This document shows positions 24,454 through 32,307 of a stretch of DNA of 64,000 nt, one piece after another. Within the stretch, counting starts at the first letter, position 1. Each line of letters begins with the position of its first letter. A model generated the notes under the pieces. That model worked only from the letters and a program-made list of their open reading frames with translations. It did no database searches and was not told the origin of the DNA. The position numbers and the translations under genes are program-made. Source of the DNA: Escherichia coli (lineage in GTDB: Bacteria > Pseudomonadota > Gammaproteobacteria > Enterobacterales > Enterobacteriaceae); assembly GCF_041886205.1 (NCBI RefSeq), contig NZ_CP169029.1. One strand, written 5' to 3'.

Positions 24454-24594
24454 CGATCTGGATCACATTCGTTAACAAAACGGCTGTAACCGTTTCCATT
24501 GCTGTGACTCGATTCACGAAGTCCTGTATTCAGTGCTGACAAAATAGCCGCCAGCAAGCAGTCATTTACTGCAATCTCATAACAGGTAGTGAAT

Positions 24595-25635
24595 ATGATC
24601 ACCATTCGTGATGTAGCGCGTCAGGCTGGCGTCTCTGTGGCAACGGTTTCCCGGGTGCTCAATAACAGCACGCTGGTCAGTGCCGACACGCGTGAAGCAG
24701 TAATGAAAGCCGTGAGTGAGCTGGATTATCGGCCAAACGCCAATGCCCAGGCGCTGGCAACTCAGGTTAGCGATACCATTGGCGTGGTGGTGATGGACGT
24801 TTCTGATGCTTTTTTCGGCGCGCTGGTAAAAGCGGTGGATCTGGTCGCCCAGCAGCATCAGAAATACGTGCTAATCGGCAATAGCTATCATGAAGCGGAA
24901 AAAGAGCGTCACGCCATTGAGGTGTTAATTCGCCAGCGTTGTAATGCGTTGATTGTTCACTCAAAAGCATTGAGTGACGATGAACTGGCGCAATTTATGG
25001 ATAACATTCCCGGTATGGTGTTAATCAACCGCGTTGTGCCGGGGTACGCCCATCGTTGCGTTTGCCTGGATAATCTCAGCGGTGCCCGAATGGCGACGCG
25101 CATGTTGCTGAATAACGGTCATCAACGTATTGGTTATCTTTCTTCCAGCCACGGCATTGAAGATGACGCCATGCGTAAAGCAGGCTGGATGAGTGCGTTG
25201 AAAGAGCAGGATATTATTCCGCCAGAAAGCTGGATTGGCACTGGTACGCCGGACATGCCGGGCGGTGAGGCGGCGATGGTTGAACTGCTGGGGCGCAATC
25301 TACAACTTACCGCTGTATTTGCTTATAACGACAATATGGCCGCTGGCGCACTGACAGCATTAAAAGATAATGGCATTGCGATTCCGTTACATCTCTCAAT
25401 CATCGGTTTCGATGATATTCCCATCGCCCGTTACACCGACCCGCAATTAACGACCGTGCGTTATCCCATTGCTTCAATGGCGAAATTAGCCACCGAACTG
25501 GCCTTGCAGGGGGCAGCAGGCAATATTGATCCTCGTGCCAGCCACTGTTTTATGCCGACGTTAGTGCGTCGCCATTCTGTCGCAACACGCCAGAATGCGG
25601 CGGCGATCACTAACTCAACAAATCAGGCGATGTAA
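24595..25635 (+). CDS. galS: LacI/GalR-family repressor GalS
   Basis: N-terminal [27 protein letters not shown]; start placed at ATG 24595 (346 aa), since the ORF-track start at 24589 is a GTG. Confidence 0.9.
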
Positions 25636-25647
25636 CCGCTTTCAATC

Positions 25648-25663
25648 TGTGAGTGATTTCACA
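25648..25663. promoter_or_regulatory. CRP-consensus site TGTGA-N6-TCACA between galS and mglB
   Basis: tgtgagtgatttcaca is a perfect match to the CRP half-sites; mgl is cAMP-CRP dependent, but its position about 250 bp upstream of mglB makes the target promoter uncertain. Confidence 0.4.
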
Positions 25664-25914
25664 GTATCTTAACAATGTGATAGCTATGATTGCACCGTTT
25701 TAACGTTGTAACCCGTATGTAACAGTGAATAATCACTTTCACCGAGGTAATAGCGTCATAACAACAATTAAAGCCGTTTTCTGGAGCGTTACCGGGCATG
25801 GAAGAACGAATTTTAAAAAGTGAGCTTCGGCGTTCAGTAACACTTCATTAACTCTACTGCCCCGCCGAGCATTTATCTCAAGCACTACCCTGCATAAGAA
25901 AAACCGGAGATACC

Positions 25915-26913
25915 ATGAATAAGAAGGTGTTAACCCTGTCTGCTGTGATGGCCAGCATGTTATTCGGTGCCGCTGCACACGCTGCTGATACCCGCATTGG
26001 TGTAACAATCTATAAGTACGACGATAACTTTATGTCTGTAGTGCGCAAGGCTATTGAGCAAGATGCGAAAGCCGCGCCAGATGTTCAGCTGCTGATGAAT
26101 GATTCTCAGAATGACCAGTCCAAGCAGAACGATCAGATCGACGTATTGCTGGCAAAAGGGGTGAAGGCACTGGCAATCAACCTGGTTGACCCGGCAGCTG
26201 CGGGTACGGTGATTGAGAAAGCGCGTGGGCAAAACGTGCCGGTGGTTTTCTTCAACAAAGAACCGTCTCGTAAGGCGCTGGATAGCTACGACAAAGCCTA
26301 CTACGTTGGCACTGACTCCAAAGAGTCCGGCATTATTCAGGGTGATTTGATTGCTAAACACTGGGCGGCGAATCAGGGTTGGGATCTGAACAAAGACGGT
26401 CAGATTCAGTTCGTACTGCTGAAAGGTGAACCGGGCCATCCGGATGCAGAAGCACGTACCACTTACGTGATTAAAGAATTGAACGATAAAGGCATCAAAA
26501 CTGAACAGTTACAGTTAGATACCGCAATGTGGGACACCGCTCAGGCGAAAGATAAGATGGACGCCTGGCTGTCTGGCCCGAACGCCAACAAAATCGAAGT
26601 GGTTATCGCCAACAACGATGCGATGGCAATGGGCGCGGTAGAAGCACTGAAAGCACACAACAAGTCCAGCATTCCGGTGTTTGGCGTCGATGCGCTGCCA
26701 GAAGCGCTGGCGCTGGTGAAATCCGGTGCACTGGCGGGCACAGTACTGAACGATGCTAACAACCAGGCGAAAGCGACCTTTGATCTGGCGAAAAACCTGG
26801 CCGATGGCAAAGGTGCGGCTGATGGCACCAACTGGAAAATCGACAACAAAGTGGTCCGCGTACCTTATGTTGGCGTAGATAAAGACAACCTGGCTGAATT
26901 CAGCAAGAAATAA
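25915..26913 (+). CDS. mglB: Galactose/glucose ABC transporter periplasmic binding protein
   Basis: 332-aa ORF with signal peptide [23 protein letters not shown]. Confidence 0.95.
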
Positions 26914-32114: not shown

Positions 32115-32307
32115 GTGATCTTCCTTAATGCTATGAGTAATTAAGGCGAACGCTAAATAAATATTGCGTGCTGATATTAAGGCTAAGCGTGTGGGGAAAT
32201 TTAAACTGTGAAAGGATTCACAATTAGCTGCGGTTCAGAATGTTATATCCGCAGCTTATTGAGTGAAGTAATAATTATTCTCAATAATTAACAGAAAAGA
32301 GAAAATA

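Follow-up and report, generated by a model that had tools for sequence, protein, structure and literature searches.

At class II CRP-dependent promoters, in the usage of Busby and Ebright, CRP is centred at -41.5, where it lies over the -35 region, and transcription depends on the -10 element; galP1 is classified as such a promoter. The mglBp promoter of Escherichia coli K-12, as held in RegulonDB/EcoCyc, has its CRP site at -41.5 and its operator at -59.5, and it differs from galETK in that a single operator abuts the CRP site, whereas galETK has two looping operators. A further group of described systems consists of the Spot 42/CRP feed-forward targets (Beisel and Storz model), which the mglB leader resembles through an invariant block with complementarity to Spot 42. 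The stretch of E. coli chromosomal DNA analyzed here (64 kb, hereafter the window) contains the same locus as mglBp of K-12, with identical positions of the CRP site and the operator (Table 1). A 16-mer in this locus is almost certainly the site from which cAMP-CRP activates the sigma-70 promoter mglBp, and mglBp drives mglBAC as a class II promoter with a long leader downstream. The observation from which our analysis started is therefore real and non-random, and it is already known, as this is the annotated, long-known CRP site of mglBp.

The CRP-binding core TGTGAGTGATTTCACA (also given as tgtgagtgatttcaca) was read from the sequence at 25648..25663 on the + strand, and both pentamer half-sites of the 16-mer fit TGTGA-N6-TCACA with 0 mismatches, in agreement with an earlier note on this DNA that had described both half-sites as exact. 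The flanks of the site agree poorly with the rest of the 22-bp CRP consensus, its outer positions, so that the term "perfect" applies to the CRP core with its two pentamers only. The same note had placed the site next to the galS stop codon and about 250 bp before the mglB start codon, and both statements hold, as the site starts 12 bp past the TAA of galS (25633..25635) and its centre (25655.5) lies 259.5 bp before the ATG of mglB (25915). The neighbouring open reading frames in the ORF list (24589/24595..25635 and 25915..26913) owe their identities as galS and mglB to the RefSeq annotation, and of 5426 complete E. coli genomes all but one (5425) contained an 801-bp stretch across the interval, once each, with the annotation galS | mglB; the gene order in the K-12 annotation is folE-yeiB-galS-mglBAC. 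Coordinates were converted by equating the mglB ATG at K-12(.2) 2,238,370 with window position 25915. The window strain and K-12 differ at a few positions in the leader, for example near 25738-25752, where K-12 has CACTTTTGCCGAGGTAACAGCG and the window cactttcaccgaggtaatagcg.

Table 1. Features of the galS-mglB interval and its flanking genes, in window coordinates.
Feature	Position	Strand	Basis
galS (mglD) coding sequence	24595..25635	+	ORF list, RefSeq annotation, translation
GalS/GalR operator of mglBAC (mglO) ATGTAACCGCTTTCAA, centre -59.5	25630..25645	.	consensus match, RegulonDB position, mutations, conservation
CRP-binding core	25648..25663	.	motif, -41.5 from published TSS, Reg-Seq footprint, adaptive mutation, conservation
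-10 hexamer TATGAT of mglBp, -12..-7	25685..25690	+	sequence read; CTATGAT offset fixed across Enterobacterales
Mapped mglBAC transcription start (G)	25697	+	Kim et al. 2012 (PMC3415461), supplement
5' untranslated leader of mglB, 218 nt	25697..25914	+	Kim et al. 2012 (PMC3415461), supplement; leader alignment
PhoB ChIP-seq motif TGTAACCCGTATGTAACA, +11..+28	25707..25724	+	Fitzgerald et al. 2023; K-12 2240543 corresponds to window 25720
Second recorded mglB 5' end, UTR 140 nt, TSS 2238510(-), 9 reads	25775	+	Kim et al. 2012 (PMC3415461), supplement
Predicted Spot 42 pairing block CTACCCTGCA, pairs Spot 42 nt 1-9	25885..25894	+	RNAduplex, conservation
mglB coding sequence	25915..26913	+	ORF list, RefSeq annotation; SD GGAG at 25906..25909

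The geometry of the promoter follows from a published transcription start. In supplementary file 2 of Kim et al. 2012 (PMC3415461), a genome-wide map of transcription starts, the mglB TSS is given as NC_000913.2 2238588(-) with a 5' UTR of 218 nt, and the 51-mer printed up to this start is CTGTGAGTGATTTCACAGTATCTTAACAATGTGATAGCTATGATTGCACCG. Since this 51-mer is identical to window positions 25647..25697, the mglB start corresponds to the G at 25697, and over these 51 bp the promoter of the window strain is without difference from that of K-12. Relative to this start the centre of the CRP core lies at -41.5, and because the CRP site overlaps the -35 region, mglBp has no separate -35 element. 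The positions held in RegulonDB for mglBp, taken from the supplement of a Reg-Seq preprint (2025-26), are -59.5 for GalR/GalS and -41.5 for CRP; both coincide with the positions computed here, and the spacing of 18 bp between the centres agrees as well. The preprint also recovered the CRP site at -41.5 as an activator mutational footprint, and its supplement labels the -41.5 position "class I". By sequence, the site has the properties of a class II promoter, namely a consensus core, a centre at -41.5 from the mapped TSS and a -10 element at -12..-7.

The earlier note had proposed a comparison with the mapped mglB TSS and had allowed for the mgl promoter and its CRP site lying elsewhere in the interval; with the start at 25697 both fall exactly at the noted site. 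Its suggestion of an unusually long mgl leader was likewise confirmed, with 218 nt between the TSS and the ATG. The start at 25697 is backed by few reads (6) in the dataset of Kim et al. 2012 (PMC3415461), and since 9 reads support the second 5' end at 25775, the main mglB start under some conditions could differ from 25697. The 5' end at 25775 could represent a secondary promoter, a conditional promoter or a processing site; upstream of it there is a weak -10-like AACAAT only, with no clear -35.

The operator that adjoins the CRP site is a 16-bp dyad and contains TGTAACCGCTTTCA at 25631..25644, which has one mismatch to TGTAANCGNTTACA, and its centre lies 18 bp upstream of the CRP centre; the galS stop TAA (25633..25635) is inside this operator. 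Among gal operators with ≤1 mismatch, the 64 kb window contains the mgl operator and the operator of the galS promoter only, and a search of the mglB leader for a second full gal operator, as would serve looping, found none at up to 2 mismatches. Published mutations connect both elements to mglBAC expression. A derepressing G-to-T change 3 bp past the galS stop (K-12(.2) 2,238,647 C>A), which sweeps in glucose-limited chemostats, maps to the G in the centre of the operator (window position 25638), and a second chemostat-selected mutation (K-12(.2) 2,238,630 C>A), described as being within the CRP activator site, maps to window position 25655 in the middle of the 16-mer core. Because the mutations map to 25638 and 25655, the sequence at 25648..25663 is what was published as the "CRP activator site of mglBAC". 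In addition, mglB was among the known CRP targets recovered by Genomic SELEX, and the activity of the mglB promoter has been reported to rise monotonically with cAMP, with repressor and activator sites described as partly overlapping. In a DNA-affinity mass-spectrometry control CRP was not enriched on the mglBp bait, which the authors see as a limitation of the method. CRP occupancy and cAMP dependence of mglBp are taken from the literature, and motif, geometry and conservation of the module come from the analysis presented here.

Conservation was assessed at 120 loci, one genome per species, which were anchored on the mglB coding pattern YKYDDNFM; a coding-sequence anchor was used because a choice of loci by the motif would itself have selected for the motif. 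At each locus the mglB ATG was located by a heuristic, which may place a few distances off by about 30 nt, and the 700 bp upstream were searched. An operator (≤1 mismatch) exactly 18 bp, centre to centre, upstream of a perfect CRP core was present in 51 of the 53 other Enterobacterales loci that had enough upstream sequence, or in 52 of 54 with the window counted, and the half-sites were perfect in all 52. The two exceptions were a Budvicia locus without the site and a Pantoea insect symbiont with a decayed operator. In the Enterobacterales loci with the module CTATGAT follows at a constant offset, 20 nt past the CRP core, and nearly all loci that bear the module have a galS homologue immediately upstream; in roughly half of the Enterobacterales loci the TAA of this gene belongs to the operator (ATGTAA). 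The interval between the CRP centre and the ATG, on the other hand, was among Enterobacterales shortest in Yersinia aldovae (127.5 bp) and longest in Dickeya oryzae (351.5 bp), with clusters at 229-265 bp in Enterobacteriaceae and at 276-305 bp in Pantoea/Erwinia. In Pasteurellaceae the operator-CRP pair was kept in 12 of 16 loci, at a spacing of 19-20 bp and at 55-165 bp to the ATG, and in Aeromonas, Vibrio and relatives the searched upstream regions held no site with ≤1 mismatch. A rigid promoter module combined with a variable leader is the pattern to be expected of a CRP site that serves the promoter on the mglB strand, and other roles are hard to reconcile with it.

Within E. coli the 73-bp promoter was single-copy in 5425 of 5426 genomes, and in two variant genomes that were read base by base all differences were confined to the spacer that separates the CRP core from the -10. 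This spacer contains TTAACA at 25669..25674 (-28..-23), which is conserved across Enterobacterales and is not at the position of a -35 element; in one E. coli variant it is replaced by TTAATA. In Yersinia aldovae and Y. artesiana, a GalS-like gene with 70-72% identity to E. coli GalS lies directly upstream of the module, and an mBio paper from 2011 states that Y. pestis lacks galS.

Two other roles for the site have to be weighed against activation of mglBp. According to the first, which the earlier note had raised as service to a different, for example antisense, promoter, the palindromic site would also or instead activate transcription leftward into the 3' end of galS. CRP sites are symmetric, so that bidirectional action is possible in principle, and the TSS dataset of Kim et al. 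2012 (PMC3415461), in the part drawn on here, is assigned to genes and may omit antisense starts. However, the mirrored -10 position on the minus strand (25621..25626) reads CTGATT, a 2/6 match to TATAAT, a promoter scan of 25400..26100 returned no minus-strand promoter-like match, and the alignment columns to the left of the operator are unconserved, whereas the -10 to the right is conserved. Moreover, the same part of the dataset contains no TSS at K-12(.2) 22386xx-22387xx. The antisense promoter was thus not borne out, and we regard it as very improbable.

According to the second, the site would act mainly on galS, for example as a roadblock that together with the operator curbs transcription running on from galS into mglBAC, and its part in the promoter would be secondary. 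In line with such a function, a search of the + strand from the galS stop to the promoter gave no intrinsic terminator, and the adjacency of galS and mglB, with the stop codon beside or inside the operator, is conserved. However, the elements are spaced exactly as in a class II promoter, and the start has been mapped. The adaptive mutations in both operator and CRP site are said to affect mglBAC expression, and loci in which galS ends 30-200 bp further upstream still carry the module. A main role of this kind is therefore very improbable; nothing observed requires roadblocking or control of read-through, which could exist as a side effect. The weakest alternative, a functionless chance match, has in its favour only that short motifs do occur at random, and its probability is close to nil, being excluded by the conservation (perfect half-sites in 52 of 54 Enterobacterales loci, window counted) and the published functional data. 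The 64 kb window contains 2 perfect TGTGA-N6-TCACA cores, both of them at promoters of CRP targets listed in Genomic SELEX, compared to an expectation of 0.02 by 100 dinucleotide-preserving shuffles, 0/100 of which gave 2.

The only other perfect core in the window is TGTGAAAGGATTCACA at 32207..32222, about 101 bp upstream of the start codon of preT (yeiT) on the minus strand, and yeiT was also among the known CRP targets recovered by Genomic SELEX. At the galS promoter (galSp) the operator TGTAACCGTTTCCA (24485..24498) is followed by the CRP core TGTGACTCGATTCACG (24503..24518). This is the same operator-plus-CRP module as at mglBp, which the Reg-Seq supplement describes as having the same architecture as galSp. 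The two differ in spacing (19 bp at galSp compared to 18 bp at mglBp), in one mismatch in the galSp CRP core and in how far the CRP centre lies from the ATG (about 84 bp at galS compared to 259.5 bp at mglB). The 19-bp spacing of galSp is also that of the mglB module in Pasteurellaceae.

Activation of mglBp from the CRP site at -41.5 remains the almost certain reading, and the mechanism that we propose for it is based on the described systems. By analogy with the framework of Busby and Ebright, cAMP-CRP bound at -41.5 would overlap the -35 region and contact RNA polymerase directly; the TATGAT -10 hexamer is the sole core promoter element of mglBp. As described in the literature, GalS/GalR on the single operator at -59.5 opposes activation until galactose releases the repressor. 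The transcript then runs through the 218-nt leader into mglB of the galactose/glucose ABC-transporter operon mglBAC, and because transcription crosses this leader first, the CRP site looks far upstream of mglB. The leader itself is a region of post-transcriptional and auxiliary control, in which Spot 42, which is repressed by CRP, would pair with Hfq's aid just upstream of the ribosome-binding site and so close a CRP/Spot 42 feed-forward loop.

The leader counts as long, since the preferred length of 5' UTRs in E. coli is 20-40 nt according to Kim et al. 2012 (PMC3415461). For E. coli as well as for Y. pestis, the mBio paper from 2011 gives the length of the mglB UTR as "about 250 bp", and it describes the promoters as similar and the UTRs as dissimilar. 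In Holmqvist et al. 2016, repression of mglB by Spot 42/Hfq via the 5' UTR was validated in Salmonella, and a CRP-Spot 42 feed-forward loop was proposed. For the E. coli leader, in contrast to these experiments in Salmonella, the pairing is a prediction. RNAduplex with the K-12 spf sequence gave -13.5 kcal/mol for the predicted pairing with nucleotides 1-9 of Spot 42, and the block concerned is invariant in 26 of 26 leaders and lies just upstream of the SD. This block probably corresponds to the site validated in Salmonella. The energy of the full-length duplex between Spot 42 and the leader was no better than for shuffled leaders (35% of the shuffles were as good), and only the short seed pairing with nucleotides 1-9 is therefore meaningful.

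PhoB may provide another input. A PhoB ChIP-seq site for mglB with the motif TGTAACCCGTATGTAACA is listed at K-12 2240543 by Fitzgerald et al. 2023 (Table 1 of that paper), together with a small RNA-seq effect for mglB (1,076 vs 772). The motif region is a direct repeat, TGTAAC-N5-TGTAAC, and its second copy (ATGTAAC) hardly varies among the 26 leaders that were aligned, most other Enterobacteriaceae having CTGAAAC-N4-ATGTAAC at this position. The 5-mer GTAAC/GTTAC is enriched in the interval (4 copies compared to 0.6 expected), and two of the four copies belong to the PhoB site. The promoter scan also detected a near-promoter sequence inside the leader, TTGTAA-16-AATAAT at 25706..25733. According to a 2026 preprint, a single mutation near +30 of mglBp reporters gave rise to a consensus -10 and, with it, to a new TSS, which would fit a change of AATAAT (25728..25733) to TATAAT, though the first A is +32 when counted from 25697.

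A structured leader RNA, such as a riboswitch or an attenuator, was considered and rejected. An Rfam scan of the leader gave no match at E≤1, the single-sequence fold was no better than that of shuffles (MFE z-score -0.41), and RNAalifold on 26 Enterobacteriaceae leaders returned a weak consensus (-4.86 kcal/mol) with almost no covariation (term of -0.3). The same 26 leaders share conserved islands in the middle of the leader at about 25783..25845, CTGGAGCGTTACCG...CACGGAAG...CTTCGGCG.TCAGTAAC, which include potential GUUAC/GUAAC and GAAG/CUUC pairings; these are almost invariant, and covariation of the island pairings can therefore not be assessed. Tentatively, and with a low degree of confidence, we suggest that the islands and the 5' end at 25775 may form a regulatory element beyond the CRP, GalS, Spot 42 and PhoB inputs. 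It could act as a secondary promoter, be processed by an RNase, or serve for the docking of Hfq, of another sRNA or of Rho. If true, such an element would explain why Enterobacteriaceae have leaders of about 190-220 nt and other Enterobacterales quite different ones.

In summary, a CRP site 260 bp from the start codon is not anomalous at mglB, because a long, regulated leader separates the promoter from the gene, and for a database-annotated site of a textbook regulon this adds little as a discovery. As a modest addition, our comparison across genera indicates that operator, CRP site and -10 are a rigid unit that Enterobacterales and Pasteurellaceae have both kept, and that the leader which follows this unit varies in both length and sequence. 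Such a freely changing leader fits a region of lineage-specific post-transcriptional control.
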